Virus record (IMG/VR): IMGVR_UViG_3300020037_007643
Source of the DNA: a virus
Direction: 5' to 3' (one strand)
DNA length: 64,000 nt
The notes under the pieces were generated by a model. That model saw nothing but the letters and a program-made list of their open reading frames with translations. It did no database searches and had not been told where the DNA came from. Made by a program: the position numbers and the translations under genes. This document shows, piece by piece, positions 46,086 to 61,696 of this stretch. Numbering within the stretch: position 1 is the first letter of the stretch; each line of letters opens with the position of its first letter.

Positions 46086-46367
46086 ATGTCAAATGAAACA
46101 AAAAAAGATAAGGTGCGAGTTACAAATGATTACGGTCATTGTAATCTTTGTAATGGGGGTCGCCGTTTCCTGTGGCGATGGCACAGTTGTTGGAAGTGTG
46201 GTGTGAAAAAGTGGTTAGAGTATTCAAGATATGACTATTTTGAAGGTGTATTATGTGATGAGTGTGGTATCCCTATGTCTACTGACTATATTACAGTAAT
46301 AATAGATTTTGTGACGTTTTGGTTAGGTTTGTTCTTAGTGGGTGTTTTTTTATTTAGTAATATGTAA
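46086..46367 (+). CDS. Cys-rich protein with a C-terminal transmembrane segment; tandem paralog
   Basis: N-terminus MSNETKKDK is shared with the next gene. Contains HCNLCNGG...CWKC...CDEC. Confidence 0.45.
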   Translation: MSNETKKDKVRVTNDYGHCNLCNGGRRFLWRWHSCWKCGVKKWLEYSRYDYFEGVLCDECGIPMSTDYITVIIDFVTFWLGLFLVGVFLFSNM

Positions 46368-46372
46368 TTTAT

Positions 46373-46867
46373 ATGTCAAACGAAACAAAAAAAGAAGAAT
46401 GTTATAGTTGTGGAGGTAAAGGTACTTACTCTCAAATACATGGAATAAATGCTAGAGGAGATTTTATCGGCGATAAAGATTATTCAGAAAAACCTTCAAT
46501 ACATAATTATCCTTGCAAAGCTTGTGATGGGACAGGATTAAAGAAAATTCATAACTCTTCCCCCCACATTCCGACAGGAGAAGATTGGGAGAAAGAGTTT
46601 GATAAAAAATGTTGTGAATCTTTTGCAAAAGGCGGATTTTTAACGACTGATTTGGTTGGAGATTGGGCTTTGGATAAACAACCTATCAAACAATTCATAC
46701 AGTCCCTCCTCCTATCCCAAGAAAAACAATGGAAAGATGAAATGGCGGGGAAGATTCCAAAATATAGGTCATTTGAAGAATCTAATAGTGTTGAATATTA
46801 CCACGGGAGAAATGATTTTAGAAACGAAATGCTCTCCCTCTTATCAAATAATCAAGAAGACAAATGA
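46373..46867 (+). CDS. Cys-rich hypothetical protein (tandem paralog N-terminus)
   Basis: N-terminus MSNETKKEECYSCGGKG...CKACDGTG. Confidence 0.5.
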   Translation: MSNETKKEECYSCGGKGTYSQIHGINARGDFIGDKDYSEKPSIHNYPCKACDGTGLKKIHNSSPHIPTGEDWEKEFDKKCCESFAKGGFLTTDLVGDWALDKQPIKQFIQSLLLSQEKQWKDEMAGKIPKYRSFEESNSVEYYHGRNDFRNEMLSLLSNNQEDK

Positions 46868-46971
46868 AACAACAAGAAATCGAGATTTTAATTTACTGGT
46901 CAATTGGTATTTTAACAGGGATTTTAGCTACCCTAATGTATCAAAAGTATTTTTAATAAAACTAACCCCAC

Positions 46972-47253
46972 ATGATAGGTATGAAAATAAAACTTACAAA
47001 AGAACAGAAAAAACACATTGAATCAATCAGATGGTTATATTCAGCTCCTCGCTGTAGTGGAAGAACCACTTTATTAGCTTATGTTTTGATTGAGTGCGTA
47101 ATGGAGACTGGAGAAAAAATGAGAATTATTGATCATTATTCATCAAGACAAGCAGATATGTATCTCGCTTCAATTATTCATAATTTAATACAAGAAAATG
47201 AACTTCCATTAAAAATTGATAATAATGGACTTTATTTATCAATTGTCAACTAA
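46972..47253 (+). CDS. Hypothetical protein
   Basis: 93-aa ORF. The overlapping 46656..47021 ORF is probably spurious. Confidence 0.4.
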   Translation: MIGMKIKLTKEQKKHIESIRWLYSAPRCSGRTTLLAYVLIECVMETGEKMRIIDHYSSRQADMYLASIIHNLIQENELPLKIDNNGLYLSIVN

Positions 47254-47268
47254 CCCCACATACTCATT

Positions 47269-47724
47269 ATGTACTACAGCGAAAAATTCAAACAAAAAAT
47301 AGGCGAACCAGTATCAGGTGGTACAGTACGCCTTGGTACAATCAACAAAATCGGTGAATGGCTCACTGACACACAAATCACACAAAAGTTTAACATCGAA
47401 CCAATGTCAATCCCCGACTTCTGGGCAACGATTGGAGGTGTGGTGGGTGTGTTCGATAAAATAGTATGGGGGTGTGTGTTTTGTGTAAAAGCAGAAGATG
47501 GGTGTGCTCTTACGGTGTTCGCGTACTGGAGCGATAGGCAGTGGTTGTTCTACTGCTTTGAGTTTGACGGGCGTGGCGAGTGGCTTGCGGAGCGATGTGT
47601 CTTCTCTCCTGCAATCGCTTTGGAACCTAGTACTCCTAGTCTCTCTGAACCTTTGCCCCTTACCGAAGAACAAATGATTTCAGCCCTCAAGTCGAAAGGG
47701 TATACGATTAGTAAAACTTTTTAA
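47269..47724 (+). CDS. Hypothetical protein
   Basis: 151-aa ORF, locally richer in G+C. Confidence 0.45.
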   Translation: MYYSEKFKQKIGEPVSGGTVRLGTINKIGEWLTDTQITQKFNIEPMSIPDFWATIGGVVGVFDKIVWGCVFCVKAEDGCALTVFAYWSDRQWLFYCFEFDGRGEWLAERCVFSPAIALEPSTPSLSEPLPLTEEQMISALKSKGYTISKTF

Positions 47725-47727
47725 AAT

Positions 47728-48138
47728 ATGAAACTCGAACAACAAGTATGCTCATTAGAGCTTGCAAAAAAACTGAAAGAATTAGGAGTGATACAGGAGA
47801 GTATCTTCCTGTGGGAAACTGGTGCTATAAAACCTAGAATTAAATTGTCGTTTGAAGATAAAGAAAATTTAGGGTTAATGAATATTACTCGTGTTGATAC
47901 TTCTGATTTTAGGGAGTATTGCTCCGCCTTCACAGTCGCAGAGCTTGGGGAGATGTTGCCGAACACAATCTATCTTAATGATGAAGGATGTGGATTGGAA
48001 ATAACTCACCATCTTGAAGTTGTGTATCGTTCATACTCTCTTGGTAAAAGAAGAATAACAAGAGAAGCAAGTACCGAAGCCGATGCACGAGCAAAAATGC
48101 TCATCTATTTACTAGAAAATAAACTTATAACCCCATGA
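47728..48138 (+). CDS. Hypothetical protein
   Basis: 136-aa ORF. Confidence 0.45.
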   Translation: MKLEQQVCSLELAKKLKELGVIQESIFLWETGAIKPRIKLSFEDKENLGLMNITRVDTSDFREYCSAFTVAELGEMLPNTIYLNDEGCGLEITHHLEVVYRSYSLGKRRITREASTEADARAKMLIYLLENKLITP

Positions 48139-48338
48139 CCACACAAAATTACGAACACCACTCACATACTCACTGTTGGAATAACGAGCAAAGAAATCTC
48201 GGTAATGTACCACCCTGCGGTATAAAAATAGAGAATCACACGCAATGTTGCTTGTGTGATATTACCCCCGAATCCCCCTGTTGCTCCGCAGGTATAGTCG
48301 ATGGGAGATGTGGGGATTGTAAGGAATTAGTAGATTAA
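48135..48338 (+). CDS. Small Cys-rich protein
   Basis: HCWN..CGI..CCLCD..CCSAG..CGDC. Confidence 0.4.
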   Translation: MTTQNYEHHSHTHCWNNEQRNLGNVPPCGIKIENHTQCCLCDITPESPCCSAGIVDGRCGDCKELVD

Positions 48339-48352
48339 GAAGAATAATATAT

Positions 48353-48646
48353 ATGGAAGACAAAATAAAACAAATAAATAGTTTGAATGAGAATATCAAA
48401 GAATTAGAAAGTTTACTGTGGCTTTTAGAAAATTCAGATATTGATTCCACTCACGGAAAGAATAAGCGAAATGAGTTTTCAATGTTTTGTGTAAAATCTT
48501 ACTTATGGACTGGTAGTGATAATCCGAGCTATGAGAAAAAAATAACAGACCGAGAGACAATGAATGAATTATCTAAGGTTATGAAATTAGTCATCGTTTC
48601 ACAGATAAACCAAAAGAAACTAAAATTAGAGAATTTAATAAAATGA
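48353..48646 (+). CDS. Hypothetical protein
   Basis: 97-aa ORF. Confidence 0.45.
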   Translation: MEDKIKQINSLNENIKELESLLWLLENSDIDSTHGKNKRNEFSMFCVKSYLWTGSDNPSYEKKITDRETMNELSKVMKLVIVSQINQKKLKLENLIK

Positions 48647-49098
48647 AAACAAAACACTCACTCATAGAAAACATACGAAAAGAAGTTATCAAGGCGAATC
48701 CGAGTATATTGGATTTGGTATTTGGTTGTAAGGTTTTTGTTCAGAATTATGTAACAAGTGTTACTATCATTGAAGATAAAAGAGGGCATGTTCGTGTAGA
48801 AGAAACGCAGTATGTTCTCGATTTTGTGGGATTTGCAAGTCGTTCTGAAAGTCTTGTTCAGTTTGACGAAAAGCATATCACTAAAATCCTCGGTCGCACG
48901 ATAGGCATTGCTGATGTGCTTTTGGCGATAGGAGATGAGCCAGTGAATTTCTTTTACTATTCCACAGGCGAGGTGCGAATGGATTATTTAGACAAAGACG
49001 ATAAGGAAATATCTATTTACTGGAATCTCAAAAATGACAACCTTGAACTCCAACCAGAAGAAACACTTTTATTTATAAATAACCTTTTAACCCAATGA
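48643..49098 (+). CDS. Hypothetical protein
   Basis: 151-aa ORF. Confidence 0.45.
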   Translation: MKTKHSLIENIRKEVIKANPSILDLVFGCKVFVQNYVTSVTIIEDKRGHVRVEETQYVLDFVGFASRSESLVQFDEKHITKILGRTIGIADVLLAIGDEPVNFFYYSTGEVRMDYLDKDDKEISIYWNLKNDNLELQPEETLLFINNLLTQ

Positions 49099-49523
49099 CT
49101 AAATCACAACTTATAGAAGAAAGTATTAAAAAATGGAACAAATATGCCAATGAACACTGGCAATCATCTGATTTTTCGGGTATTCATTTATTAGTACAAG
49201 AAGATTTTGGCAAAGAATTTCTATCTGACGAACTCTCCCTCATATATGACAAGGCGGTGGAGGAGGGATTAAAAAATTCAGCGGTTCTGTGCGGTAAATT
49301 GATGGAATTGCCTGATAAAACATTTATTGGGGGATGTGGAGAACCTGTAAATATACTAAGTGCTTATGCTTGTGTTGATTGCTCCGCACCTTTTCATAGG
49401 AAATGTTTACTAAAACACATGAAAGAGGATATGCCAGTTCAATCACTATCAAAAATGACCCTTGAAAAAGCATTTCAAAAACTAGATGAATTATCCACCC
49501 TAACCCCCAAGGGAGAGAAATAG
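49095..49523 (+). CDS. Hypothetical Cys-containing protein
   Basis: 142-aa ORF. Confidence 0.45.
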   Translation: MTKSQLIEESIKKWNKYANEHWQSSDFSGIHLLVQEDFGKEFLSDELSLIYDKAVEEGLKNSAVLCGKLMELPDKTFIGGCGEPVNILSAYACVDCSAPFHRKCLLKHMKEDMPVQSLSKMTLEKAFQKLDELSTLTPKGEK

Positions 49524-49526
49524 TAT

Positions 49527-49712
49527 ATGGCATACAAATACAAAACAATTAAAGATTTATTCATTGTAATAGTACAAACAATGTTTTTGTTAACCTGTTT
49601 TATTCTCGTTCTTGTGTTATCATTTTGGGCAATACATTGGGCTAGTCCAAAATATGAAATAATTTGCAGTGGAACATTAGAAGAAAATATTTATCTGTGC
49701 GTAAAACACTAA
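49527..49712 (+). CDS. Small membrane protein
   Basis: 61 aa with a hydrophobic core. Confidence 0.35.
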   Translation: MAYKYKTIKDLFIVIVQTMFLLTCFILVLVLSFWAIHWASPKYEIICSGTLEENIYLCVKH

Positions 49713-49921
49713 TTATGCCAACTAACAATATAAAAAAATACAAGAAAAAACATAAACATTATTGGTCAGTAGAACACCTTGTATATGAAGGTCGTACACC
49801 AAGTGAGATGGCGATACATAGATATTGTCAATGTGGTGTTCATCAAGTTGGCTATGTATCTCGTTTTTATAAACCGTCAAAAAGATGGGATATGAAAATG
49901 CTTAAAGATTGTGCTAAATAA
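49664..49921 (+). CDS. Small basic Cys/His protein (start probably the internal ATG near 49715)
   Basis: 85-aa ORF. Confidence 0.35.
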   Translation: MQWNIRRKYLSVRKTLIMPTNNIKKYKKKHKHYWSVEHLVYEGRTPSEMAIHRYCQCGVHQVGYVSRFYKPSKRWDMKMLKDCAK

Positions 49922-50196
49922 TTTTTAATCTATTATAAATCAATCTTATGAAATATTATTATCAAAAAAGATGGTTTAATAATAAATGGCAACTTTTAAA
50001 ATGTCTTTTTGGTTTTGATCATTTGTATAGATGGGAATGTGGACAAAAAACTTGTTTATTTTGTCGTCATATAACCAATAAGGTATATAAAAAATAACTA
50101 TTTTTTATTAAATATAACACAATAAGTCTGTGGAAAATCAAAAATCACAGCTCCTCCAAGCCTGAACTTTCCCCCTAATTCCCCGTAAATAAAAAA

Positions 50197-50230
50197 GGTA
50201 GTAGAAATTAATCTACTACCTTTTTCTTTT
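50197..50230. terminator. Bidirectional rho-independent terminator between convergent transcription units
   Basis: GGTAGTAGA-aattaa-TCTACTACC flanked by A-run and T-run (TTTTTCTTTT). Confidence 0.65.
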
Positions 50231-50232
50231 AT

Positions 50233-50679
50233 TTAGTTGTTTGTAACTGATTCAACTGCTTTTACTGCTGTTGATTTTGTGATCTCATTAATGAGTTCAT
50301 TTGTTTTCTCATTAAGTTCATCAATTGATACTTTGATTTCACCGTTTTGGATACTTTCAATTTTCTTTACCTTTTCATCCTTAAGTTCATTGAGTTTCTG
50401 AATTTTTTCATTTTCAGATACAATTAACTTTTCAATCATCTCTACTCCTTTCTTTATATATTCTTTCTTTTCTGCAAAATCTGGATCTGCTTCAACGAGT
50501 TGTGTTTCTGCAAAGTTTTCTCGTGCGATGTCTTTCTTGAGATTCATTACGTTTTCTGTGTGTTCGTTTATGTTCTTTTCGATATCAGAAATTTGTGTTT
50601 GAACTCTTGAAACCATGTTCATTCTAAGTCCATCTCTTGCAATAATCTTAAGTTTTTCTACGATTGTGTTGTAATTCAT
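50233..50679 (-). CDS. Coiled-coil hypothetical protein
   Basis: 148-aa ORF rich in E/K heptad-like sequence. Confidence 0.5.
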   Translation of the reverse strand: MNYNTIVEKLKIIARDGLRMNMVSRVQTQISDIEKNINEHTENVMNLKKDIARENFAETQLVEADPDFAEKKEYIKKGVEMIEKLIVSENEKIQKLNELKDEKVKKIESIQNGEIKVSIDELNEKTNELINEITKSTAVKAVESVTNN

Positions 50680-51005
50680 ATATATGTTGTTTTAATTTTT
50701 TTAATTATTTTTGTAATCTTTCTTTTAATGTCTTCTTGTTTTTTACCAAATCCATATCCAGGGTTTTTAATTAATTTATTAATAACCCGTGTGCATTGTA
50801 TTTGTGTTAATCCCCAAACACCTTCTCCTCTTTCGTTTGTGTTTGGATTTAGTAATTGGAATCCATAGTCTTCTTGATTTTCTGGGTTTTTTCTGAATAT
50901 AGCCCATAAATCTTGGTTAAACTGTACTATTATCCCAGTATTCCTTTCTTCTACGTCTAAGCATATTTTTATATTTTCTGGGATTCTAATTTGTTGTGTC
51001 TTCAT
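50676..51005 (-). CDS. Hypothetical protein
   Basis: 109-aa ORF. Confidence 0.45.
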   Translation of the reverse strand: MKTQQIRIPENIKICLDVEERNTGIIVQFNQDLWAIFRKNPENQEDYGFQLLNPNTNERGEGVWGLTQIQCTRVINKLIKNPGYGFGKKQEDIKRKITKIIKKIKTTYI

Positions 51006-51411
51006 GTTTTAATAGATGTCCGTCAAATTTCATTTTTGTGAACATTTTAGGAAATGCTATTTTATACATCCATACTGAGTAACTACATGCTTTTAACTCT
51101 GATTCACCCAATATGTGATGTGCGAATTCATGTAATGCACTAATGATACTTGGTTTACTTTTGCTTATATTTATTGTCCTTGTTTCTTGTAGGTAATAAT
51201 TTCTTTCTTCTTCTGTTGTTATACAGCAAGGATTATCATATAATTTACATAAACTTGTTATTAGTTCATAGAGTGCATTATGTTTGTATTCAGTTGTTTT
51301 TTCTTTCCACTTATTATAATGTTTTTCTTTCCATTCTCCTAAGATTAAAATGTCTTCATTTATCCCTTCTGGAGGATTTTCCAGTATTTCTTCTTTTGTT
51401 GGATATATCAT
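50986..51411 (-). CDS. Putative zinc metallopeptidase (HExxH)
   Basis: ALHEFAHHILGESE. Confidence 0.45.
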   Translation of the reverse strand: MIYPTKEEILENPPEGINEDILILGEWKEKHYNKWKEKTTEYKHNALYELITSLCKLYDNPCCITTEEERNYYLQETRTINISKSKPSIISALHEFAHHILGESELKACSYSVWMYKIAFPKMFTKMKFDGHLLKHEDTTN

Positions 51412-51414
51412 TTT

Positions 51415-52620
51415 TTAGTCTCCTAGTAATAATGTTTTTTGTCTTTCTTCACCTAAATTATTATCATTTTCGACCTCTCTTTCATGGTAATGTTTAGGTG
51501 TATATCCTTCGATATCAGCTATGATACTTTCTGCATTCTCTTCTGTGTTTCTGTAATAGCTGATTGCGTTTCCTTTTGCTTCCTTAAGTATTTGTTTGAA
51601 TTGCATTAAATACTCTTCGATGTTTGCTGTGTATGCAAGTTTTTCTTCTGCAAGTTCCTGTATGAAGTCTTCCATTAATGATTGTACTTCTCCTACTGAA
51701 AAGTCCATTACATTATCCCAATTTTTTTCTGTAATCTGATATGCTGCATTATAATCATCAACTTCTTCTTGATCTTCTTTTGTCCATATTGTTTTCTTGT
51801 TTGTTTGTATTGTTGTATTTTGGGTTTGTTTTTGATTTTGGAATCCAAAAGGACTTGGAATTGGAGTAGGTTCTTTTATCGGGAAATTCAAGTTTTGTTC
51901 TGTTGCTTCTAGTGAGTTTGAAGAAAGATTAATTGTAAAGATTTTATCTTCTTCAATTAACTCACCTGGACCTTCAGATGCAAGTGTTAGTATATTGTCT
52001 TTAATTTCTAGATTTAATGGATTTATATGTCTTCCGTAGATAAATTCTATTGCTTTATTTGTTTTTTTATCTATTTTTATTATTAGAAATGCTGCACTTC
52101 CATCGAAGAATACTTTACTTTGTTTTTTCTCTAAATAAAGAACCATTTCTATTGCTAATGACTCTGAGTCGTTATATTTTGCAGTATGAGATCTTGCCCC
52201 GTTGTATATTACCACACCTTCTTCTTTTGGAATTTCTGTTGTATATATAAATCCCATTTTTTCATGTTCATCTTTTAATTCATCACAATTTCTTATCATC
52301 CCATTATGCATTACATAATAAGTGTAATCTAGTATATTGTTTTCTACTAGTATTGGGTGTGTTTGTGATAATTTGTTTTTTGTAGATGTTGGTGTTCTGT
52401 GGTGAGCAAGTACCATTGCTTCTAAGTTGTTATGTAGATCGTACATAAACTTGGCTGGTTCTGTTGCTCTTTTGATATTTAGTTTTTTGTTTTTGTCTAT
52501 TGTTATTATTCCGAATCCTTCTGTTCCCCGTCTGTATTGTTCTTCATACATGTCAACGATTTTGTCATTAACGGGTGCTTTTTCTTTATTGCTATTTATT
52601 GCTGCTATTAGTCCACACAT
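51415..52620 (-). CDS. Class II (Ntn-type) glutamine amidotransferase domain protein
   Basis: N-terminal MCGLIAAIN, with a Cys2 nucleophile as in PurF, GlmS and AsnB. Confidence 0.6.
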   Translation of the reverse strand: MCGLIAAINSNKEKAPVNDKIVDMYEEQYRRGTEGFGIITIDKNKKLNIKRATEPAKFMYDLHNNLEAMVLAHHRTPTSTKNKLSQTHPILVENNILDYTYYVMHNGMIRNCDELKDEHEKMGFIYTTEIPKEEGVVIYNGARSHTAKYNDSESLAIEMVLYLEKKQSKVFFDGSAAFLIIKIDKKTNKAIEFIYGRHINPLNLEIKDNILTLASEGPGELIEEDKIFTINLSSNSLEATEQNLNFPIKEPTPIPSPFGFQNQKQTQNTTIQTNKKTIWTKEDQEEVDDYNAAYQITEKNWDNVMDFSVGEVQSLMEDFIQELAEEKLAYTANIEEYLMQFKQILKEAKGNAISYYRNTEENAESIIADIEGYTPKHYHEREVENDNNLGEERQKTLLLGD

Positions 52621-52635
52621 TGTGTTTTTATTTTT

Positions 52636-54339
52636 TTAGTTAGGTGAAGTTCGACTTTCTTCCGATGTTTCCTCCCCAGGTAGTATTGTTTCTGCGTTTA
52701 ATACTTGTTCTGTTTCGTTTTCGATGACTTCTTCTTCTCTTGTAATTTGCTCTATTCTATTTTCTGCATCTGATGTGTCAGATGAATCATCTATTACTAT
52801 TGCATCTAGGGCTGTTTCTTCTGTTTCTATTTTGTTTAATTTCTTATAAATATGACCCTTTTCTGTCTCAGGTAATTCGGTGTCGTTTGTAATGTTTTTA
52901 TTATTACGTGTAGGTTTTTTGATTTTACCTTTTTCTATGTCATATATAAGTTCTATTAATTTTGTTGTTTTCATGCTCATTCTGTCCTCGTATGGTATAC
53001 CAATGAGTATGATTTCTTTTTTGATTTCTTCGTTTTTTCCTGTCTTGAAGTTAAGTCTTTTTGTTGTTTCTTCTTCACCCATTATTTCTTTAGCCTTTAC
53101 TCTCATTCTATCAACAAGTTTTTTAATTGCTTGCTCATCGCTTGTTGTTTGAATTTGGTCTGTACCTATTATTTTTTCAGTTTTCTTATTTGCTACAATA
53201 TAACTATTGATTCCCTTTCTTACTCCGTATAAGAAATATTCTTTCTTTAGGTTTAAGTCGAATGCTGCAACAGTTTGTGTTATTCTTTGTGCAAAGATAT
53301 CAACATTTGCATCTTCATTGTATGCAATATTAACTAAACTGCTTATTGTATCTAGGTCTTTTTCTTTTATTCTTTTTTTGAATGCTTTTTCTGAAAGTAT
53401 TGTTTTTTTGAGTGGTTCTTTTTTGTTTTTCAATAGATTCCAACCTTGTCTGATATCGAAATTAGCGTTTTGTTTGTCAGCTATTACCTGTTCAGGTTTA
53501 AGGATGTATTCTATTTCTTCCTTGAATGTATCGTATAACTCAAATGTTTTTATGTATTTTTTGATTTTGTTTAGGAGAGTATGTGTAAGTGTTTTATATT
53601 CTCCTATTACAAGTTCTTGGATTGCATCTCCTTGCTTGTCTGTTCTGATGATTATATCTCTACATGTTTCTTCAAACTTTTTAGGATGCTTCATAATTTC
53701 ATGGTAAACTACTCCAATATATGCAAGTGTTGATTTTGCAATTTTAGGTGTAACTGTCCATTCTGCTGAAGGGCATCGTAATTCATATGTGAATCCGGGT
53801 GTTCCATCTGGTCTTGTGAATTTATTATCTACACGGTATGCACTGTTTGAACAAAGATTTCCATAACCTCCTTTCATTCTGATTGCTATGTTTGTTTTGT
53901 TTTCTCCCATTATTATAGGGAGGTAGAATGATATCATTCTTTTGTGTATACCCTTCATTCTTTCTACCTTAGGTTGACCTCCTGGTAATTCTAGGTGGAT
54001 ATGACCTCCAAGTGTTGATGCTCTACTTAATGTAGATATTTCAAATAATGGTGCTGCCTTATTGAATTCTTTGAATATTTCACCTAGGTTTTCAATGACA
54101 CCTTCTGGTGAATTATTTGCTTCTGGTCGTATTTCTCCTGTTGATGAATGACCGTCCCATCCTAGTGTTCCAGCGTTTTTGTTTTTTAATTTGAATCCGT
54201 CTCTTTCATTACTTTCAAAGTTTTCATTTTTTGAGAGTAATCTTGTTATTGTTTCTTTTGCGTTTAGTCTTTTGTTATAGAGCTCCATGTTGAATTCTGG
54301 GTCTGCTCCGATTTTAAATTTGAATTCTTTTGTTGGCAT
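52636..54339 (-). CDS. Large hypothetical enzyme, possibly a glutamine-synthetase-like amidoligase partner of the GATase
   Basis: 567 aa. Contains IGADPEF and GWDGHSSTGEIRPE (compare the GS FDGSS region). The call rests on gene order. Confidence 0.35.
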   Translation of the reverse strand: MPTKEFKFKIGADPEFNMELYNKRLNAKETITRLLSKNENFESNERDGFKLKNKNAGTLGWDGHSSTGEIRPEANNSPEGVIENLGEIFKEFNKAAPLFEISTLSRASTLGGHIHLELPGGQPKVERMKGIHKRMISFYLPIIMGENKTNIAIRMKGGYGNLCSNSAYRVDNKFTRPDGTPGFTYELRCPSAEWTVTPKIAKSTLAYIGVVYHEIMKHPKKFEETCRDIIIRTDKQGDAIQELVIGEYKTLTHTLLNKIKKYIKTFELYDTFKEEIEYILKPEQVIADKQNANFDIRQGWNLLKNKKEPLKKTILSEKAFKKRIKEKDLDTISSLVNIAYNEDANVDIFAQRITQTVAAFDLNLKKEYFLYGVRKGINSYIVANKKTEKIIGTDQIQTTSDEQAIKKLVDRMRVKAKEIMGEEETTKRLNFKTGKNEEIKKEIILIGIPYEDRMSMKTTKLIELIYDIEKGKIKKPTRNNKNITNDTELPETEKGHIYKKLNKIETEETALDAIVIDDSSDTSDAENRIEQITREEEVIENETEQVLNAETILPGEETSEESRTSPN

Positions 54340-54342
54340 ATT

Positions 54343-54855
54343 TTATATTTTATATTCTAAGTAACAATTGGGGCACGTTTGATTTTTTTGTTCCTCTGTG
54401 TTAAATGGTCTTATGTCTATTTCTTTAAGGAAGATATATTTGCATTTAGGACAGATCCCTGTGGCTTGTGTAATTAAGTCTTCTCTGAATTTATGTGTAA
54501 ACAATGCTTTGTCTTCTGTGCTTTTTGTTTGTGCTCTTGGGTTTTCTTCTCCGTAATCTTCTGTTTTATTTTCTTTTTCTTCTCTATCTGCTAATTCCTC
54601 TGGATCTATTTCTATTAGATCGTTTGGGTTAAGTTCATTTGAACACTCTGGGCATTTGTATTCATATGATCCATCGAGGTTATAACTTGAATCATAGTAC
54701 TCAAAATCTTCTGTTATTATTTGACCTGATTGATCTTTTCTTAGCGAGCATGATCCCCATTTGTTTCCAGATATTGGTATATCATAATCTAAATAATTTA
54801 TTGTTTCATTGCAACCTGGACATTTAAACATATTATGTATAATATTCTGGAACAT
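54343..54855 (-). CDS. Multi-zinc-ribbon protein
   Basis: CPGC, CPEC, CPKC and CPNC pairs. Confidence 0.5.
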   Translation of the reverse strand: MFQNIIHNMFKCPGCNETINYLDYDIPISGNKWGSCSLRKDQSGQIITEDFEYYDSSYNLDGSYEYKCPECSNELNPNDLIEIDPEELADREEKENKTEDYGEENPRAQTKSTEDKALFTHKFREDLITQATGICPKCKYIFLKEIDIRPFNTEEQKNQTCPNCYLEYKI

Positions 54856-55030
54856 ATGATATTTGTGGTTTTTCTATATTGTCAAACCCAAATTCGTGTA
54901 TTGTGTCAGATAAATCCTCGTCTTCTTTATCTATTTTTTCTATGTTCCAGTCTACTTTATTATTTTTATCTTTTCTTTCTTTCCTATTTTCAAATCTATA
55001 AAAATTATTTTCTATTTCTTCATTTTTCAT
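54833..55030 (-). CDS. Small acidic/basic hypothetical protein
   Basis: 65-aa ORF. Confidence 0.3.
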   Translation of the reverse strand: MKNEEIENNFYRFENRKERKDKNNKVDWNIEKIDKEDEDLSDTIHEFGFDNIEKPQISYVPEYYT

Positions 55031-55051
55031 TTTATATTCTTGTTTTTGTTT

Positions 55052-55321
55052 TTATTCGACCTCTTCAAACCATCTGATGTTTTTTAATGCACCAGTTTTT
55101 ATTATTTGAGGGTTTTTTTTGATTGCTTCTTTTATGTATTCTTTGTATGATTTTTTCCCTCTATTTATTTTTTCTCCATGTGCTGTTTGTGGGTCAAATG
55201 GATATTTTTCTTTTTTTTTATGTTCGTATGCTTTTTTAACCTTAGGTCTTTTTTTGCCCGTTTTTGCCTCTTTAATTTTCTGGTTATGTCCCGGTGTTCT
55301 TGGGTATATTCCTGTTGGCAT
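55052..55321 (-). CDS. Small highly basic protein (possible nucleic-acid-binding)
   Basis: 89 aa, Lys-rich. Confidence 0.45.
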   Translation of the reverse strand: MPTGIYPRTPGHNQKIKEAKTGKKRPKVKKAYEHKKKEKYPFDPQTAHGEKINRGKKSYKEYIKEAIKKNPQIIKTGALKNIRWFEEVE

Positions 55322-55505
55322 TTTATTCTTTTTTGGTTTTAATCATTTGAGGTTCTAATGCTGTGAATATTTCTTCTATTCCCATTTTGCTTGTTTTATA
55401 GAGTATATGGGCATGGATATGAACTTGTGACACAAGAACTCCAGTTACTTCGTTTTTTGAATCTCTTATTACTACACAAACTTCTTCATTTTTATTCATA
55501 ATAAT

Positions 55506-55832
55506 TTAAATAATTCTTTTTTCTTGTAATATTTTTCTTAATTTTAAGTTTGCCCAATTTTCTTTTTTGATTACTTTTTTAAGATGTCTTGGGTGATAAC
55601 CCAATTGGAGGATATTTCCAGATGCATCTGTGTGTCTAACAATTACGTACATTCCGTGCATTGTTATTACTTTTGCTTTTTCTTTTCTGTATACTTCTCC
55701 AAGTTCCGCACTTCCGTTTGTGTTTATTAAATTAGTAGGTATTGAGTCGTATTCAAAATATCCTGGTAAATAATTAAGATTTGTTCTTCCATTTTCACCT
55801 AAAAATTCTACTATATCTCCTGGTTTAAACAT
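55506..55832 (-). CDS. Paralog family member 1 (conserved C-terminus NWxN.KLRKILxEKxII)
   Basis: C-terminus shared with the 59524 and 60407 ORFs. Confidence 0.55.
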   Translation of the reverse strand: MFKPGDIVEFLGENGRTNLNYLPGYFEYDSIPTNLINTNGSAELGEVYRKEKAKVITMHGMYVIVRHTDASGNILQLGYHPRHLKKVIKKENWANLKLRKILQEKRII

Positions 55833-56115
55833 TTTGTAAATATTTTAATTAATTAATCTTTTTATAATCTATATAAAGTTAATATATATTCACGTATATA
55901 TCTTTTATATATTGTTACCTTTAATTAAAAATAGTTTTTATTATACTTATTCATGTCGGCTACAAGGTAGCATTGAACTAGTGGTTTTAGTTTCCCTACT
56001 CGCTAGGGTTTTGTATGTAAGTTTTCTTTAATAACTCTTTTTAGTTAAATTTTCTTGAATTAAGGGTATAAAATAGAAAGATTAATTAATTAAAATATTT
56101 ACATTATTTAAATAT

Positions 56116-56352
56116 TTAACCTTCTATTTCATCAAACCCAGCTTCTTTGAATTTTTCTGCTTCTTCTGTTGATAGATACATGAAGATTCCCCCTTCTTGA
56201 TCTTCTTTTCCTTTGTATGACATGTCTATTCTTTGTGTTAAAACATAATCAGAATCATAAAATTCTGTAGTTGTATTAGTTCTTTTTCTTAGCCAATATT
56301 CTTTTGGATTTAATGTTATTGTTATATCTGATGGTTCTTTTTGTATTTTCAT
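56116..56352 (-). CDS. Hypothetical protein
   Basis: 78-aa ORF. Confidence 0.4.
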   Translation of the reverse strand: MKIQKEPSDITITLNPKEYWLRKRTNTTTEFYDSDYVLTQRIDMSYKGKEDQEGGIFMYLSTEEAEKFKEAGFDEIEG

Positions 56353-56538
56353 TTACATTTCATCTATCATTAATAATAATCTTTTGTATTCATTTTCTGT
56401 TATTTTTCCTTCTATGTAAGCCAATCTTGCTATTCTTTTTCCTTTTTCTTTGCCGTGATGATTGGTTATACCTAAAATATCAGTTGGTATTGTAATTATG
56501 TCGTCTACAATTCCTAGTATCCCATTTATTATTCCCAT
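56353..56538 (-). CDS. Small hypothetical protein
   Basis: 61-aa ORF. Confidence 0.35.
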   Translation of the reverse strand: MGIINGILGIVDDIITIPTDILGITNHHGKEKGKRIARLAYIEGKITENEYKRLLLMIDEM

Positions 56539-56623
56539 ATATCTCTACACTCACATTCATATTGTAATTCTTCACATTCTTCACATGTTTCATCTATTGG
56601 GAACTCTTCTTCTGTTGTCATTT

Positions 56624-57058
56624 TTATATTTGTTTATATAAAGTAATAATATTTTGAATTATAGGCATTTTTTCTTTATCTTCTTTATCTTGACAGTCAT
56701 ATAATGCCTCTAATTCATTCATTCTTATTGTTAATTTTTCTCCTTTTGTTTTACTGAATAAAGAATACAAATCCCAGTCTGCTTTTGATCTTTTTTGAAG
56801 TAAGTCTATTTCATTCATTAATTTTTTACTGAGACACTCTGGGCATACAGAGTCATTGTTTGAATTTTTTATGCAGGTGTTACATCTATAATTTTTTGTT
56901 TCAACCGGTTCCCAGAATAATTCTTCACATTCTAAGCATTCCACGTATTCCATATCAGGATTACTCATTATTTTTTTAAGGCAGGCTTTACATGTGTCTT
57001 CTTTGTATAATACCCCTATGAATAATTCTTTGCATTCTACGCATTCTATTTTTTCCAT
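56624..57058 (-). CDS. Multi-zinc-ribbon protein
   Basis: Six CxxC pairs. Confidence 0.5.
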   Translation of the reverse strand: MEKIECVECKELFIGVLYKEDTCKACLKKIMSNPDMEYVECLECEELFWEPVETKNYRCNTCIKNSNNDSVCPECLSKKLMNEIDLLQKRSKADWDLYSLFSKTKGEKLTIRMNELEALYDCQDKEDKEKMPIIQNIITLYKQI

Positions 57059-57061
57059 GGG

Positions 57062-57433
57062 TTATTGATTAAATGATTTTAATTGCTCAATAACTCGTAT
57101 TTCGGGGATGTAGATGTCTTTGACGAGACTCATTGCTGAATCTACAGAAAATCCAATTCCAAATATTGTCATGAAAATACCAAACATAATCAATGGTATT
57201 TCTACCCCTCCATTCCAATTTTTTTTATTACCATATTTAATCCCCTTATAAATGAATATTACCCCAGTAATAGATAATAAAATCATCAATCCAAGAAGAA
57301 TACTATCCGTAATAATCAAATACTTTACATATCTCCCAAATAAATCAAGGAAATAATCTTTTGTAATAACTAATCCCTCTTGGATTTTAGGGAGTAATTT
57401 TGTTGTGAAATCGTTGTATAATGTTTCTATCAT
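57062..57433 (-). CDS. Membrane protein
   Basis: Two or three hydrophobic helices. Confidence 0.45.
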   Translation of the reverse strand: MIETLYNDFTTKLLPKIQEGLVITKDYFLDLFGRYVKYLIITDSILLGLMILLSITGVIFIYKGIKYGNKKNWNGGVEIPLIMFGIFMTIFGIGFSVDSAMSLVKDIYIPEIRVIEQLKSFNQ

Positions 57434-57439
57434 ATATGT

Positions 57440-58180
57440 TTTATTTACTTAATAATGGTTGAAGAACAGGTGGGGAAAAATTCTATCCAGTCCTCCGAGC
57501 CGTGTGCTTTGTATATCGGAGCTATTGGCAATACTGGTCAGGCAAATTGTTTGTTGGGTGCAACCCATTTCAAGAGCAATTGTGGTTTAATCTTTGCGAC
57601 GACCGCCTTGTTTCCCCCCATCTATTCTCCAACTACTTACTGAAATACCTTATTCTGGTGGCAAGGTTAGACTTGCAGAATCCATGGGTTGAATTAGAAA
57701 CGTGGTACGCACCTACATCACCAACTATGTTCTAATGCCTGTAATTCTTTGTAGGTCATACGGCTCACTGTCCGCCACACCAGAGTAAGATATTCCAGTT
57801 TGAGAGTGAGAGAAAGTGTGCGTGGTAAGGTTTGACTTACAAGGTATTCGTGCATTCCCATAGTTTGTCCTACCCACTTAGTAGTTTTCTATGCGGTTCA
57901 CTGCCCGCCACACGCACTTTCTATCACCCTCTATTTGATTTTAATAGATTATTTATTTTGAATTATAAATATTACAACTATTATAAAAGTTATAATACCC
58001 GCTCCAACACAAAATCCTATAAAAAATTTATCCATAGTAATAATTGTTTTAATGTTTTTTTAATCTTCGACTTTTATAATATGCTTATGGGGAAGTAGAA
58101 ATTTTAATACTTGCGTTCGAATACAAGATCTGCACCCCGGCTATTAAAACTTAGGTTCTACACCTATTCCCCCATAAGCA
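57440..58180 (+). ncRNA. ORF-free, G+C visibly higher than the flanks (no composition computed), structured segment: candidate ncRNA or self-folding element
   Basis: Direct repeat CGGCTCACTGTCCGCCACAC / CGGTTCACTGCCCGCCACAC. Inverted match GAAAGTGTGCGTGG / CCACACGCACTTTC. Ends in a 14-bp-stem hairpin ATGCTTATGGGG...CCCCATAAGCAT that encloses TTCGAAT. Strand unknown. The overlapping ORFs are probably spurious. Confidence 0.3.
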
Positions 58181-58182
58181 TA

Positions 58183-58521
58183 TTATAGTTTATATATGCC
58201 TTGATATGGTATGAATACATATTCTTTTCCCTTATTTGATTCTAGAAAGTATTTGTTTGTTTCTTTCTTTGTTATTTTAAGGTTTTTAAGGAATCCTATA
58301 TTCACCGTTTCCCCGATCTCCCAGTTATTATCTAATTGGTTTTTATTTTTTATATAGTTTTTTTTCTCTCTTTCTTCTTTTTCTTTCATTGTTTCTAATT
58401 CCTGTATGTTTTTACCAAGTTTTTCGTAGGCACAATTACTACAAATACAATAACCATTTGACATCATAGGTGATATATTATTGTTTTCTTTTTCACAGTA
58501 ATCACATTTTTGTTTTATCAT
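58183..58521 (-). CDS. Zinc-ribbon protein
   Basis: CDYC..CSNC. Confidence 0.45.
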   Translation of the reverse strand: MIKQKCDYCEKENNNISPMMSNGYCICSNCAYEKLGKNIQELETMKEKEEREKKNYIKNKNQLDNNWEIGETVNIGFLKNLKITKKETNKYFLESNKGKEYVFIPYQGIYKL

Positions 58522-58541
58522 ATTGTATTGTTTTTAAATTA

Positions 58542-58766
58542 TTATCTAGTGTATGGTCTTTTGTATTGTTTTCCATATAATTGGTTGTTTTTATATTCTC
58601 CCTGATCTTCTTTCTTAATGATTCTTTGACATACTTGAATCATGTTAATTAACATTTCTCCTTCTCTTTTCTCTATTTCGATACATTCACCTTTGTACTC
58701 AATCATGTATCCTGTATTCATTTCTCTTACGATTTTGACACTAAATATACTTATTTGAGTTTTCAT
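58542..58766 (-). CDS. Small hypothetical protein
   Basis: 74-aa ORF. Confidence 0.35.
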   Translation of the reverse strand: MKTQISIFSVKIVREMNTGYMIEYKGECIEIEKREGEMLINMIQVCQRIIKKEDQGEYKNNQLYGKQYKRPYTR

Positions 58767-59002
58767 GTTGTTAATTTACTTCTTACTTGTTGCCCTTTTT
58801 CTACATTTTGGTGAACAATATTCTGATAGTTTTGTTTGAGTCGGTGTTTTTCCACACCATGAGCAACAGAGGTATCTAGGTTTTTTTCTCATGTTAATGA
58901 GTTATGATTTGTAATGTTTTTTGAATTGCATCATATTTGTTGGTACTTATCACCAGGATGTTACCATATTTTGCAATCCAGTTGTTATTTGATTTTTTTA
59001 CT

Positions 59003-59320
59003 TCAATGTTTTGCATGTTTTTTGGTTGTATATTTCTGTATTAGGTATTCCATGGGATGGATATAACCCAAATTCATCCAAAAACACAATACCGAATCCA
59101 CTATAGTTTTTTCATATGGGTAATTCTTTTTTGCACATCTATATAATGTAAATAGATATATTCCAAAGATTTTAATAGGTCTTCCACTAATCCAGTTTTT
59201 AGGGCATTTGTATCCTATTTTGTAATACCATGTTTTATTGTATTCTTTTATACATTTAATACATAGATATTTGTATTTCTCTATTTCTGTGAAACATTTT
59301 GCGCAGTTATATTTTTTCAT
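59003..59320 (-). CDS. Zinc-ribbon protein whose C-terminal extension is probably spurious
   Basis: N-terminus CAKC..CIKC. The 3' part is the reverse translation of the 59-bp repeat. Confidence 0.35.
   Translation of the reverse strand: MKKYNCAKCFTEIEKYKYLCIKCIKEYNKTWYYKIGYKCPKNWISGRPIKIFGIYLFTLYRCAKKNYPYEKTIVDSVLCFWMNLGYIHPMEYLIQKYTTKKHAKH
59044..59102. repeat. 59-bp dispersed repeat (58/59 identical to 1891-1949 inside the 1262-aa structural gene)
   Basis: ggtattccatggGatggatataacccaaattcatccaaaaacacaataccgaatccacta versus the same sequence with A at position 13. Confidence 0.8.
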
Positions 59321-59519
59321 GATTTATTCTTTTTATTGTTATTATTTTTAATGAATCTGGTGTTTTTGTTACTTTAATACTAATATTTCTTGCTTTTCCA
59401 CATTTTTCACATAAGCTGAAGTCTATTGCTGTTTTTTGATATATACTTTCCCAGTTTTGTATTCCCTTGAAATCTCTGTAATAATGTTCACAGAATAATT
59501 GTTTAATTAATTGTTTCAT
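59307..59519 (-). CDS. Small Cys-containing protein
   Basis: 70-aa ORF. Confidence 0.35.
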   Translation of the reverse strand: MKQLIKQLFCEHYYRDFKGIQNWESIYQKTAIDFSLCEKCGKARNISIKVTKTPDSLKIITIKRINHEKI

Positions 59520-59523
59520 AGTT

Positions 59524-59895
59524 TTATATTATGTTTTTTTCCATGAGGATTTTCCTTAATTTTGGATTTCCCCAGTTCTTTATTATTTGTGTATTTTTTT
59601 TTGTTATAGTTATATCTATGTAATCTCTATCGCAATTATTGGTAATACACCAAGAGTATTTGTATCCTAAATTTTCTTTTTCACCTCTTTTGTATAAAGT
59701 ATCAATGATAGAAGCTCTATTTAGTAAGTTTTCGTTTGAGCATATCCAAACAATACTTAAGCTTACTGCCCCTTTTGGTATGAAGATTTTTCCTGTTATC
59801 TTTTTATCGTATGCTATTATTTCTATTACATCACCATGTTTAAGATATTTTGCTATTGTTGTAGCATCTGGTGATTCTAAACTAATTGGTCTCAT
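59524..59895 (-). CDS. Paralog family member 2
   Basis: C-terminus IIKNWGNPKLRKILMEKNII. Confidence 0.55.
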   Translation of the reverse strand: MRPISLESPDATTIAKYLKHGDVIEIIAYDKKITGKIFIPKGAVSLSIVWICSNENLLNRASIIDTLYKRGEKENLGYKYSWCITNNCDRDYIDITITKKNTQIIKNWGNPKLRKILMEKNII

Positions 59896-60027
59896 GATGT
59901 TGATTTTAATGATTATTAATGATATATCCCTGGTCTCTTTAACTTATGGGTATATTTCTTATTTAAATGCCTCTATTTACTCTTATACGCCTCACTGTGA
60001 GGTTTAAATGTGTAAGATGGTATCTAG

Positions 60028-60099
60028 TCTCCTTACCATGAATCGAACATGGATTTAATCCTTAGAAGGGATTCGTTCTATCCATTAAACTATAAGGAG
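60028..60099 (-). tRNA. tRNA-Arg (anticodon UCU)
   Basis: Reverse complement has acceptor CTCCTTA/TAAGGAG, D-arm GTTT-AATGGATA-GAAC, anticodon stem AATCC/GGATT, loop CTTCTAA, T-arm CCATG-TTCGATT-CATGG. Confidence 0.7.
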
Positions 60100-60244
60100 A
60101 ACACCACTAAGTTATCATATGATAACTATCATAGTGGTAAAAATTAAAAAGGTCTGAGTATCATTACTAATCCATGCGTGAACATCTAATAGTAAAACTG
60201 GAATGATTTTATGTAACGTTCCACTTTCGTTACCCTTTTCAATG

Positions 60245-60317
60245 TCGGTCATCTTGGATTTGAACCAAGGACTTCCTCGGTATAAGCAAGGCACTCTACC
60301 AACTGAGTTAATGACCG
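60245..60317 (-). tRNA. tRNA-Ile (anticodon UAU)
   Basis: Reverse complement has acceptor CGGTCAT/ATGACCG, D-arm ACTC-AGTTGGTA-GAGT, anticodon stem CCTTG/CGAGG, loop CTTATAC, T-arm CTTGG-TTCAAAT-CCAAG. Confidence 0.65.
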
Positions 60318-60406
60318 ATATCCCTGATGAACCAAGGATATATTGGAACAACGCAGAGTAAGTTGCTACTCCCTGTTTATTCTTGTATTTCACAGTTTCC
60401 AATATG

Positions 60407-60769
60407 CTATATTATGTTTTTCTCCATGAGGATTTTCCTTAATTTACGATTTCCCCAGTTCTTTATTATTTGTGTCTCATCTTTGGTTATTACAAGGTCA
60501 CAATCTGGAATTTCTCTAATACACCAAGAGTACATATACTCAAGATTCTTTCTTTCGTTTCCTCTGTATAAGATTTTAGGTATGGTTGCTCCATCTAAAT
60601 TAGGTTTGTTTGAGCATACCCATACAGTTTCTGATTCTATAGCAAGTGGTATGAAAATTCTCCCTTTTATTTTTTCACTACCTGTTGGTCCTAAAAATAT
60701 TGTTATATTATCCCCATGCTTTAGTTCTCTCCTTATGTCTCTGCAATTTGGATTTACTAAATACTTCAT
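60407..60769 (-). CDS. Paralog family member 3
   Basis: C-terminus IIKNWGNRKLRKILMEKNII. Confidence 0.55.
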   Translation of the reverse strand: MKYLVNPNCRDIRRELKHGDNITIFLGPTGSEKIKGRIFIPLAIESETVWVCSNKPNLDGATIPKILYRGNERKNLEYMYSWCIREIPDCDLVITKDETQIIKNWGNRKLRKILMEKNII

Positions 60770-61696
60770 ATTGCTATATATACTATAATGCTAATAATAA
60801 TGGCTATAGTAAAACCCATATAATAGCCAGTTTTTCTCGCTTGCTTACGCATAACTTCCATATCTTCTTTTGTGTACATGTATTCTTTCATATGTTTTAA
60901 TTTTACTAATAATTATGGTCCCTTCTGGAATTGCACCAGATTCTCTCCCTCCACATGGGATTGTTCTACTGATGAACTAAGGAACCGAAATAAGTATTAA
61001 GGAAGGAGTTTTCGATTGTCTCCTGATTATGGCCGCCTATAATCCCTTTTTCTCAATGGTTAATACTTAAACCCTGTGTTACTCTCAATTTCTCTTAAGT
61101 ACAGGATACAAAAGGTAATATATGATAAAGCCCCTGATGTTTAGGATAAAATCCTTTTAATATATATTACTTTCTATTACTCTATTATTACCTTTTGTAT
61201 TCCACACTCAATAAAAGAAAAATGGAGTAATATGGATAATCAAGTATGTAAGGCGTATGATAGCATATTTATTCTTTGCGTTCATAACTCCTTTTTATTT
61301 CCTTACTTCCTAGGTATATCCCAGCCTGAGCCAGTTTACCCTAAGTTGATTATCCATATTACCCCACTTCTCTTTTAAATTATATATATGATAGAGAGCA
61401 TTAGCCTTAATGCTTTATATATAACCTTCGAATGTTTTTATTTCCTCTCGGACTCTCTGTCATTCTGATTTAAATTACTGGTGTAATCTTTAATTCTTTC
61501 TATTAAATTGTAAAAGTACTAAGCACCCAAAACAATCAATAATCCTCTGTATTGATTATCTTATTGCATAAAGTATATATAGCTAAATATACTTATAGTG
61601 CTCATTATCGGATATAAGCTAGTTGGTTAACCTTTGAGTCCAAGTGTTATTCTATGGACTATATAGTTACTAGTTTGGGTGCTTAATACTCTTACG

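Follow-up and report, generated by a model that had tools for sequence, protein, structure and literature searches.

A predicted carboxylate-amine ligase and class II glutamine amidotransferase within a six-gene unit of an uncultured phage

The minus strand of the analyzed DNA (hereafter the window, the whole stretch of 64,000 nucleotides) carries a transcription unit of six genes, which encode, in this order, a Zn-ribbon protein, a ligase, a glutamine amidotransferase (GATase), a zincin, a small variable protein and a coiled-coil protein, followed by a terminator (Table 1). The carrier is a large, uncultured, AT-rich phage. The reading frames of the 567-residue ligase (52636-54339) and the 401-residue GATase (51415-52620), both on the minus strand, lie where an earlier note on this DNA had placed them; they are separated by 15 nt, and 3 nt lie between the stop codon of the Zn-ribbon gene and the ATG of the ligase.

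Table 1. Features of the six-gene unit, in the order of transcription.
Feature	Position	Strand	Remarks
Sigma-70-like promoter candidate, TTGACA-18-TATCAT	54856..54885	-	11/12; consensus match only
Zn-ribbon protein, first gene of the unit	54343..54855	-	170 aa as listed
Ligase, predicted catalytic domain (residues 1-302)	53434..54339	-	Pfam PF14395, GS/GCL fold
Ligase, C-terminal conserved region (residues ~303-470)	52930..53433	-	Alpha/beta core ~338-470
Ligase, variable acidic tail (residues 471-567 and stop codon)	52636..52929	-	Low conservation, low-pLDDT segments
GATase, putative class II (Ntn, Cys-nucleophile) domain (residues 1-232)	51925..52620	-	Invariant residues, profile alignments
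GATase, C-terminal extension (residues 233-401)	51415..51924	-	Poorly conserved, from alignment
Putative minimal zincin-like metallopeptidase, 141 aa, HEFAH	50986..51411	-	Motif PSIxSxLHExxHxxxGxSE
Small basic protein, 109 aa	50676..51005	-	Fast-evolving, optional
Coiled-coil protein, 148 aa	50233..50679	-	Homologs in related loci
Intrinsic terminator	50192..50225	-	14-bp stem, then T-run

The unit is bounded by the intrinsic terminator, which lies 8 nt past the stop codon of the coiled-coil gene and is also convergent with plus-strand genes. The promoter candidate just upstream of the Zn-ribbon gene is the best sigma-70-like match of the region, in which the total number of promoter-like matches is not above the shuffled expectation. 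The Zn-ribbon gene probably starts at ATG 54831, giving a protein that begins MFKCPGC; its homologs, which in most of the related loci immediately precede the ligase gene, have the N-terminus MWKCP. The protein contains two CxxC...CPxC pairs with an acidic linker between them, and its zinc-ribbon matches in Pfam and NCBIfam are all weak. At the other end of the unit, the small basic protein is missing in one related locus (L012) and its place is taken by the zincin-coiled-coil fusion in another (L018), while the coiled-coil protein displays the conserved motifs AR..LR, HP(D/E) and GExKVS.

The ligase, whose N-terminus reads MPTKEFKFKIGADPEF, matches Pfam family PF14395 (COOH-NH2_lig) with 35.8 bits against a gathering threshold of 25, residues 11-302 aligning to positions 2-254 of the 254-position profile. 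The same family was found in 119 of 120 ligase homologs among the matches listed; it replaces Amidoligase_2 (PF12224), which had been suggested beforehand. The structure model of the protein has a carboxylate-amine ligase fold of the GS/GCL type, with GCL, PafA, Dop and gamma-glutamylmethylamide synthetase as its top structural neighbours, and YbdK and GCL match it as well as PafA and Dop do. On this basis, the N-terminal domain is a predicted ATP-dependent carboxylate-amine ligase. Residues D13, E15, E69, R71, H113, H115, R154, E186, R188 and E193 are invariant in 35 sequences, and these acidic, histidine and arginine residues are presumably involved in metal or ATP binding, as in the GshA and GS structures. 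The sequence GWDGHSSTGE had been likened to the FDGSS region of glutamine synthetase. This equivalence was dropped; the invariant residues around GWDGHSS (W61, D62, T67, E69, R71 and P72) fall within the stretch matched by PF14395. Residues 500-567, within the acidic tail, have a pI of 4.05. A search of the PDB with the ligase profile gave nothing significant, tblastn against 50,697 phage records gave no match, and no PHROGs family matches the ligase.

The second enzyme is assigned from its sequence as a stand-alone class II GATase domain, lacking a synthase domain, with the canonical glutamine-binding residues intact. It starts with MCGLIAAIN, and the second residue had been proposed as the Ntn nucleophile. 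This cysteine is not a start-codon artefact: upstream of ATG 52620 an in-frame stop is reached before any other possible start, and MCG or MCE opens the sequence in 31 of the 32 homologs in the alignment. Invariant positions in the 32 homologs comprise M1, C2, R31, G32, H73, H74, R75, P77 and T78, together with H105, N106, G107, N150, D151 and E153, among which the glutamine-binding residues are included; we take R75, N106-G107 and D151 to be the equivalents of GlmS R73, N98-G99 and D123. The family profile aligns from residue 1 to PurF in the PDB (E 4e-8), and NCBIfam models of the GlmS, PurF and AsnB N-terminal domains are matched with E values of 2.8e-9 to 3e-4. The NCBIfam scores are far under the full-length cut-offs because the N-domain alone is present. 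Pfam GATase_6 scores 19.5 bits, under its cut-off of 27, PF13522 is carried by about a sixth of the GATase homologs among the matches listed, and the PHROGs matches are to families of unknown function only. The C-terminal extension consists of an acidic linker, a W-x-x-EDEE-like patch and a helical region, has a pI of 4.40, and gave coiled-coil noise only when compared with the PDB.

The 141-residue product is a putative minimal zincin-like metallopeptidase. The earlier note was right about the presence of a HExxH peptidase gene adjoining the GATase gene, but in the direction of transcription it lies immediately downstream and not upstream. The motif (H94, E95 and H98) is invariant in 36 homologs, and in the structure model it is carried by a helix (residues 89-101) that follows three strands; C109 and H132 are invariant too. 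The family comprises at least 742 diverged representatives and has no Pfam model; searches of the Pfam and PDB sequences with the zincin gave no match, and a myoglobin entry (E 0.17) in the ligase and zincin profile searches of the PDB is noise. In two relatives, P0460 and P0368, the zincin is fused to the coiled-coil protein, almost the whole of which is covered in the BLASTP alignments (E 6e-13 and 2e-7). The zincin and the coiled-coil protein therefore appear to act together.

In all 12 distinct related loci with enough sequence, the ligase gene is followed by the GATase gene and this by the zincin gene, at ligase identities of 36-52%. The ligase and GATase genes are always adjacent, one of each, 0-40 nt apart (12/12). 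Such an arrangement is not due to chance. The cassette is constant across the loci while the neighbouring genes vary. This constancy speaks against DNA base hypermodification, a proposal in which a modified nucleobase would be amidated or extended by the two enzymes. Such genes are reported beside thymidine-hypermodification genes in viral contigs: Lee et al. found that Pfam matches to amidoligases and glutaminotransferases occur in association with 5-HMUDK/aGPT-Pplase clusters (PMC8989533). However, the cassette, the 64-kb window and the genes called in the related loci gave no match to 5-HMUDK, aGPT-Pplase, dUMP hydroxymethylase or TET/JBP, and we regard a role in hypermodification as highly improbable.

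The phage has no cultured relative, since its SNF2 helicase finds no phage match above 31% identity. Megablast with 24 kb of the window returned no match, PADLOC identified no defence system apart from coiled-coil noise, the Rfam matches are tRNAs only, and the public sources hold no names for the cassette proteins. A peptide deformylase gene was located by the Pfam scan.

Taken together, the most likely mechanism is a glutamine-dependent amidation, or a gamma-glutamyl-type ligation, of a carboxylate. Amidation is our preferred reading, held tentatively and at somewhat less than even odds: the enzymatic core of the six-gene unit would be a two-protein glutamine-dependent amidoligase, with the zincin and the coiled-coil protein handling the substrate. 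The ligase would use ATP to convert the carboxylate of a substrate to an activated acyl-phosphate, and the GATase, with Cys1 exposed by removal of the initiator methionine, would hydrolyze the gamma-amide of glutamine and supply the nitrogen, possibly by ammonia transfer between physically coupled enzymes, with the net reaction R-COOH + Gln + ATP -> R-CONH2 + Glu + ADP + Pi. The extra C-terminal domain of the ligase probably binds the substrate or a partner, and the zincin and the coiled-coil protein linked to it probably act on a peptide or protein substrate, by processing or presenting it; the target may be a host or phage molecule, such as a cell-envelope peptide or protein. In the GATase, Cys1 is retained, as are the R, N-G and D residues responsible for binding either free glutamine or a gamma-glutamyl group. 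Because no other enzyme able to run a multi-step pathway is present in the cassette or window, amidation by the two enzymes is chemically complete. Amidation is further supported by the strict adjacency of the two genes and by the phiEco32 and LUZ24-type cassettes, in which a ligase and a class II GATase are paired in the same way. On the other side, we know of no characterized amidotransferase that pairs a GS-fold ligase with a separate class II GATase, and the class II amidotransferases known to us are fused to their acceptor domain. The known stand-alone class II GATases, and the known GATase partners of GS/GCL-like ligases (EgtC, PuuD-type), act as gamma-glutamyl hydrolases.

An alternative is that the ligase couples the gamma-carboxylate of glutamate to an amine, as GCL, GmaS, PuuA and PafA do, and that the GATase hydrolyzes or transfers the gamma-glutamyl group in the manner of EgtC on EgtA products. 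The glutamate could be free or protein-terminal, and candidates for the amine include polyamines, amino acids and lysine side chains. Pairs of a ligase and a GATase-like hydrolase are an established theme in the Egt, Puu and Ipu pathways, and formation or cleavage of gamma-glutamyl amides is common to all the top structural neighbours (GCL, PafA, Dop and gamma-glutamylmethylamide synthetase). In three distinct relatives (L001, L005 and L020), the region ~0.7-3.5 kb upstream of the ligase contains a Peptidase_C26 gene whose GICRG and HPE motifs are intact, and a gamma-glutamyl cyclotransferase (GGACT) is carried in sister cassettes; both point to gamma-glutamyl chemistry instead of amidation. 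Nevertheless, the window and most related loci lack Peptidase_C26, the Egt, Puu and Ipu pathways need intermediate enzymes of which none is found in the cassette or window, and the forward and reverse enzymes by themselves would be futile. Gamma-glutamyl ligation and removal is considered possible, but on the unlikely side.

The PafA and Dop resemblance also raises a pupylation-like tagging, in which the ligase links the terminal glutamate of a protein or peptide to lysine residues in proteins of the host or the phage, and the zincin matures the tag. In such a scheme, the GATase could deamidate a glutamine, creating the ligatable glutamate. The cassette differs from the PafA/Dop systems in that Pfam detects no Pup-like tag (C-terminal GGQ/GGE) and no Mpa or proteasome partners in the cassette or window, and its proteins have no conserved C-terminal Gln/Glu or GG-type end. 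Moreover, the GATase keeps the residues that bind the alpha-carboxylate and alpha-amino groups, which fits a free amino acid better than a protein terminus, and YbdK and GCL are equal structural matches. Tagging of this kind is decidedly improbable. A broader version, to which we give a small chance, is a self-contained protein-modification system separate from the classic amidoligase cassettes, in which the PafA/Dop-like ligase, with its novel C-terminal domain, and the Cys-Ntn amidohydrolase would mark a specific host or phage protein with an amide or gamma-glutamyl group, the zincin and coiled-coil pair would serve as maturase or adaptor, and the lineage may infect CPR/Patescibacteria.

Modules with a phage amidoligase and a GATase are widespread, occurring in Kuravirus, LUZ24-like, OM43 and HMO-2011-type phages, mycobacteriophages and prophages; the role under which they have appeared in the literature for 15 years, for example in cell-wall or receptor modification or in secondary metabolites, is a purely predicted one. 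A modifying role is likewise predicted in two published reports (PMC10580990; PMC11318856); our literature search for experimental characterization of phage amidoligase systems returned predictions only, in agreement with the earlier note. Of the versions seen here, that of the present lineage is the simplest, having a single ligase and a single glutaminase, and it brings newly recognized obligate partners, the zincin family and the coiled-coil protein, which are sometimes fused. With so simple a cassette and these partners, two to four recombinant proteins suffice for a direct test of the chemistry, and the peptidase and its partner give a handle on a possible peptide or protein nature of the target. 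If the target is a host protein or an envelope component, the cassette would define a new mechanistic class of takeover or exclusion by phages.

The closest known system is the amidoligase cassette of phiEco32/LUZ24-type phages, reportedly predicted by Iyer, Abhiman, Burroughs and Aravind in 2009, after which PF14395 (phage phiEco32-like ligase type 2) is named. As in the present cassette, a PF14395 ligase stands beside a class II GATase in the non-structural region of a lytic phage, and the function derives from prediction only. The neighbourhood is thus the amidoligase signature that the earlier note had recognized in the pairing of a class II GATase with a carboxylate-amine ligase; that note had overlooked the existing Pfam model named for this context, the six-gene operon and the divergence from the classic cassette. 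A core motif, GGHIH...YG...YExRxxSxxW, is common to the two groups of ligases (hhalign E 3e-4), and tblastn gave no link between them. By contrast, three ligases (PF14395 of 265-268 aa, Amidoligase_2 and an ATP-grasp protein) and GGACT belong to the classic cassette, whose GATase has 486-676 residues against 401 here. ATP-grasp, Amidoligase_2 and GGACT are all present in phiEco32 and UFV-P2, whereas none of them was found in the cassette, the rest of the window or the called genes of L001, L003, L004 and L018. The single ligase has instead an extra conserved C-terminal domain that is missing from the 265-268-residue PF14395 proteins, and the zincin, coiled-coil and Zn-ribbon proteins are added.

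More distant resemblances concern the individual enzymes. YbdK/GCS2 ligases and gamma-glutamylcysteine ligases (GshA, plant GCL) have 9-13% identity to the ligase, which lacks a sequence-level match to any PDB chain and differs from them in its extra C-terminal domain, phage context and class II GATase partner. The GATase shares with PurF, GlmS and AsnB, and with EgtC/YafJ, the N-terminal cysteine and the R-G, HxR-x-x-T, H-N-G and D-S-E motifs from residue 1, but differs from PurF, GlmS and AsnB in having a variable acidic extension of 170 residues and no fused synthase domain. In MurT/GatD, a separate ATP-dependent ligase and a separate glutaminase amidate a carboxylate of a cell-wall precursor; the analogy is functional, with different folds (Mur ligase and class I GATase) and no implied homology. 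Compared with the minigluzincins (projannalysin, abylysin and selecase), SprT/Spartan/Wss1 and CapP/IrrE-like proteins, the zincin has a motif of its own, HExxHxxxGxSE. The cassette is a stripped-down, previously undescribed variant of the phage module predicted in 2009.

Six closely packed genes occupy positions 50,192-54,885 of the window on the minus strand; the first three gaps between them measure 3, 15 and 3 nt, and the genes overlap at the last two junctions. The top sigma-70-like match of the region, a consensus match only, lies directly upstream of the first gene, and a hairpin with a 14-bp stem and a T-run is found on the minus strand 8 nt past the final stop codon. The earlier note had read the genes at 51415-54339 as a possible phage amidoligase module, in which a class II glutamine amidotransferase (GATase) accompanies a GS-like ligase and a HExxH peptidase (the zincin); the gene module is confirmed and its interpretation is supported. 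The ligase TAA is in frame with the GATase ATG, five codons downstream (52621-52638). This match is probably a coincidence, because read-through would join the two proteins but bury the catalytic cysteine. Many small proteins with CxxC pairs are encoded around the cassette (46086-49921, plus strand; 54833-59895, minus strand).

Features of the window and of related loci (positions refer to the window unless a locus is named)
Feature	Position	Strand	Remarks
Zn-ribbon protein	54343-54855	-	orthologs begin at equivalent of ATG 54831
Ligase	52636-54339	-	567 aa
GATase	51415-52620	-	401 aa; N-terminus MCGLIAAIN
Zincin	50986-51411	-	141 aa; HEFAH
Basic protein	50676-51005	-	109 aa
Coiled-coil protein	50233-50679	-	148 aa
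CxxC-pair proteins (examples)	46086-46367, 46373-46867, 48135-48338, 56624-57058, 58183-58521, 59003-59320
Endolysin-type protein	1231-5019	+	1262 aa; several such domains
Large ORF	7632-14021	+	2129 aa; no assigned function
GroEL	15147-16778	-	phrog_5725, E 2.8e-114
Peptide deformylase	18889-19458	-	PF01327, E 4.6e-15
tRNA genes, first cluster	38533-41487	+	n=11 in both clusters
tRNA genes, second cluster	60027-60986	-
Shorter inverted-repeat pairs	61090-62207		five pairs
Long inverted-repeat arms	62424-62672, 63720-63987		~1.05 kb apart
ORF between the arms	62875-63231	+	118 aa
Tandem pair	63436-63541		53 nt
Peptidase_C26 genes	L001 4513-5340, L005 3557-4375, L020 3444-4232		~0.7-3.5 kb upstream of ligase
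GroES/GroEL genes	L001 10824-11111, 11695-13332
Acb2_Tad1_hairpin gene	L018 5881-6126	-	1.4 kb from cassette

The ligase matches PF14395 ('Phage phiEco32-like COOH.NH2 ligase-type 2') at 35.8 bits, above the Pfam gathering cut-off of 25, and its residues 11-302 cover the model fully. The proposal had been staked beforehand on a GS-like fold of this large protein, and that fold is present. A search of 5.8 billion proteins revealed 246 relatives; among the 120 listed, 119 carry PF14395, all but one are 517-648 aa long, and many are borne by contigs of 86-103 kb. Alignment of 35 sequences, with identity down to 38%, displays invariant columns at D13, E15, E69, R71, H113, H115, R154, E186, R188 and E193, and a second invariant block comprising N341, D343, G372, G376, G447, P449, Y450 and R453. 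The part holding this second block is covered by no viral structure in BFVD, where the top match to the ligase is a 267-aa COOH.NH2 ligase type 2 of Salinivibrio phage CW02.

The GATase ATG at 52620 is the earliest possible start after an in-frame stop, and M1-C2 is invariant in 32 homologs (identity down to 31%), which bears out the claim of a cysteine at position 2. Residues R31-G32, H73-H74-R75-x-P77-T78, H105-N106-G107 and N150-D151-x-E153 are likewise invariant, and align with the GlmS motifs R26-G27, R73...T76, H-N98-G99 and D123. The family profile aligned from residue 1 to PurF Cys1 (E 4e-8) and also to GlmS, and NCBIfam gave N-terminal matches to GlmS, PurF and AsnB (E 2.8e-9 to 3e-4); the single sequence stays under the Pfam GATase_6 threshold (19.5 versus 27 bits). 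The domain ends near residue 232, and the 170 residues beyond it form an acidic (pI 4.4), poorly conserved stretch that contains no synthase domain. The peptide deformylase of the phage could help toward the N-terminal maturation needed by a Cys1 amidotransferase.

Twelve distinct loci offered enough sequence for a comparison of gene order: the window and the related L001, L003, L004, L005, L008, L009, L010, L011, L012, L015 and L018. Every one of them retains the order ligase, GATase, zincin, and the ligase and GATase genes are 0-40 nt apart. In most loci the ligase has the Zn-ribbon gene ahead of it, and the coiled-coil gene follows. Since the flanking genes vary between loci (RNR, GroES/GroEL, SET, epimerase), the conserved unit is the cassette itself. 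A Cpn10/GroES gene lies close to it in relatives, and L018 carries a gene of the anti-CBASS/Thoeris sponge family nearby. An exhaustive search for the zincin family, which has no Pfam model, gave 742 representatives at 50% identity, nearly all stand-alone proteins of ~140 aa. In two of them, P0460 and P0368, the zincin is fused to a homolog of the coiled-coil protein (BLASTP E 6e-13 and 2e-7), and one fusion locus has the order ligase, GATase, fusion. The small gene that separates zincin and coiled-coil genes belongs to a fast-evolving family and is sometimes missing.

A search of 185,579 species genomes located the ligase on only two contigs, L019 (JBAYUY010000002.1) and L020 (JBAYME010000021.1), both in Patescibacteria MAGs (bins Candidatus Shapirobacteria and Candidatus Paceibacterota). 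L019 is identical to a 38,636-nt contig classed as viral by IMG/VR; the cassette is thus essentially phage-specific. The binning is either an error or a hint at a lineage that infects CPR/Patescibacteria. The window is itself phage, with a GC content of 30-37%, and encodes GroEL, SbcCD, UvsX, a primase-helicase, an SNF2 helicase, peptide deformylase, dUTPase, RuvC, large proteins with endolysin domains and 11 tRNAs, with three tRNA-Leu and a TAT-anticodon tRNA-Ile among them. The 1262-aa and 2129-aa products are probably virion-associated. Neither a 24-kb megablast nor comparison of the SNF2 helicase found a close cultured relative. The ~3 kb at 61000-64000, where GC reaches 0.37, are nearly ORF-free and have no match in Rfam or Pfam. 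The single ORF longer than 62 aa is bracketed by a long inverted repeat with segments of 148 and 87 nt that are 93% complementary; this stretch may mark an origin, a terminal region or an insertion between inverted repeats.

The cassette holds an intact predicted ATP-dependent carboxylate-amine ligase in obligatory adjacency to an intact predicted Cys-Ntn gamma-glutamyl-amide hydrolase, the peptidase/coiled-coil pair attached to this core, and no enzymes beyond ligase, GATase and peptidase. On these grounds we tentatively favor, as the most economical reading, a heteromeric glutamine-dependent amidotransferase in which ligase and GATase would convert a carboxylate to a carboxamide; the substrate of the peptidase/coiled-coil pair would be a peptide or protein. 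Gamma-glutamyl ligation and removal, the main rival, is rather unlikely. In its favor, GS/GCL-like ligases paired with GATase-like hydrolases have precedent, the closest structural neighbors all have gamma-glutamyl amides as substrates or products, sister cassettes contain GGACT, and near the cassette three distinct relatives encode a Peptidase_C26, a class I GATase of the gamma-glutamyl hydrolase type that bears GICRG and HPE motifs; against it, the intermediate enzymes that such pathways require are absent from the window. A pupylation-like tagging system lacks a recognisable tag and is improbable.

A scan of phiEco32 revealed gp77 (GGACT), gp80 (ATP-grasp), gp83 (GAT-II, 676 aa), gp84 (Amidoligase_2) and gp86 (PF14395, 268 aa), and this gene set recurs in the LUZ24-like phage UFV-P2 (PMC3890496). 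By contrast, ATP-grasp, Amidoligase_2, GGACT and Peptidase_C26 are absent from the 64-kb window, and its ligase shares with gp86 only a common core, GGHIH...YG...YExRxxSxxW (hhalign E 3e-4). Two papers credit Iyer et al. 2009 with predicting cell-wall modification and superinfection exclusion (PMC10580990; PMC11318856). Our literature search found predictions only, with no experimental study of phage amidoligase modules, and none among the papers listed joined phage 'amidoligase' with anti-defence. Co-association with thymidine-hypermodification genes is reported for some viral contigs (PMC8989533); DNA hypermodification is highly improbable here, as all partner genes are missing from the 64-kb window and from the genes called in related loci. 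This kind of module is already known, with a role that is predicted only, and a specialist would spot it at once; new are its minimal version, the long-form ligase and the newly recognised partners, and so simple a cassette could help answer what phage amidoligase modules do.
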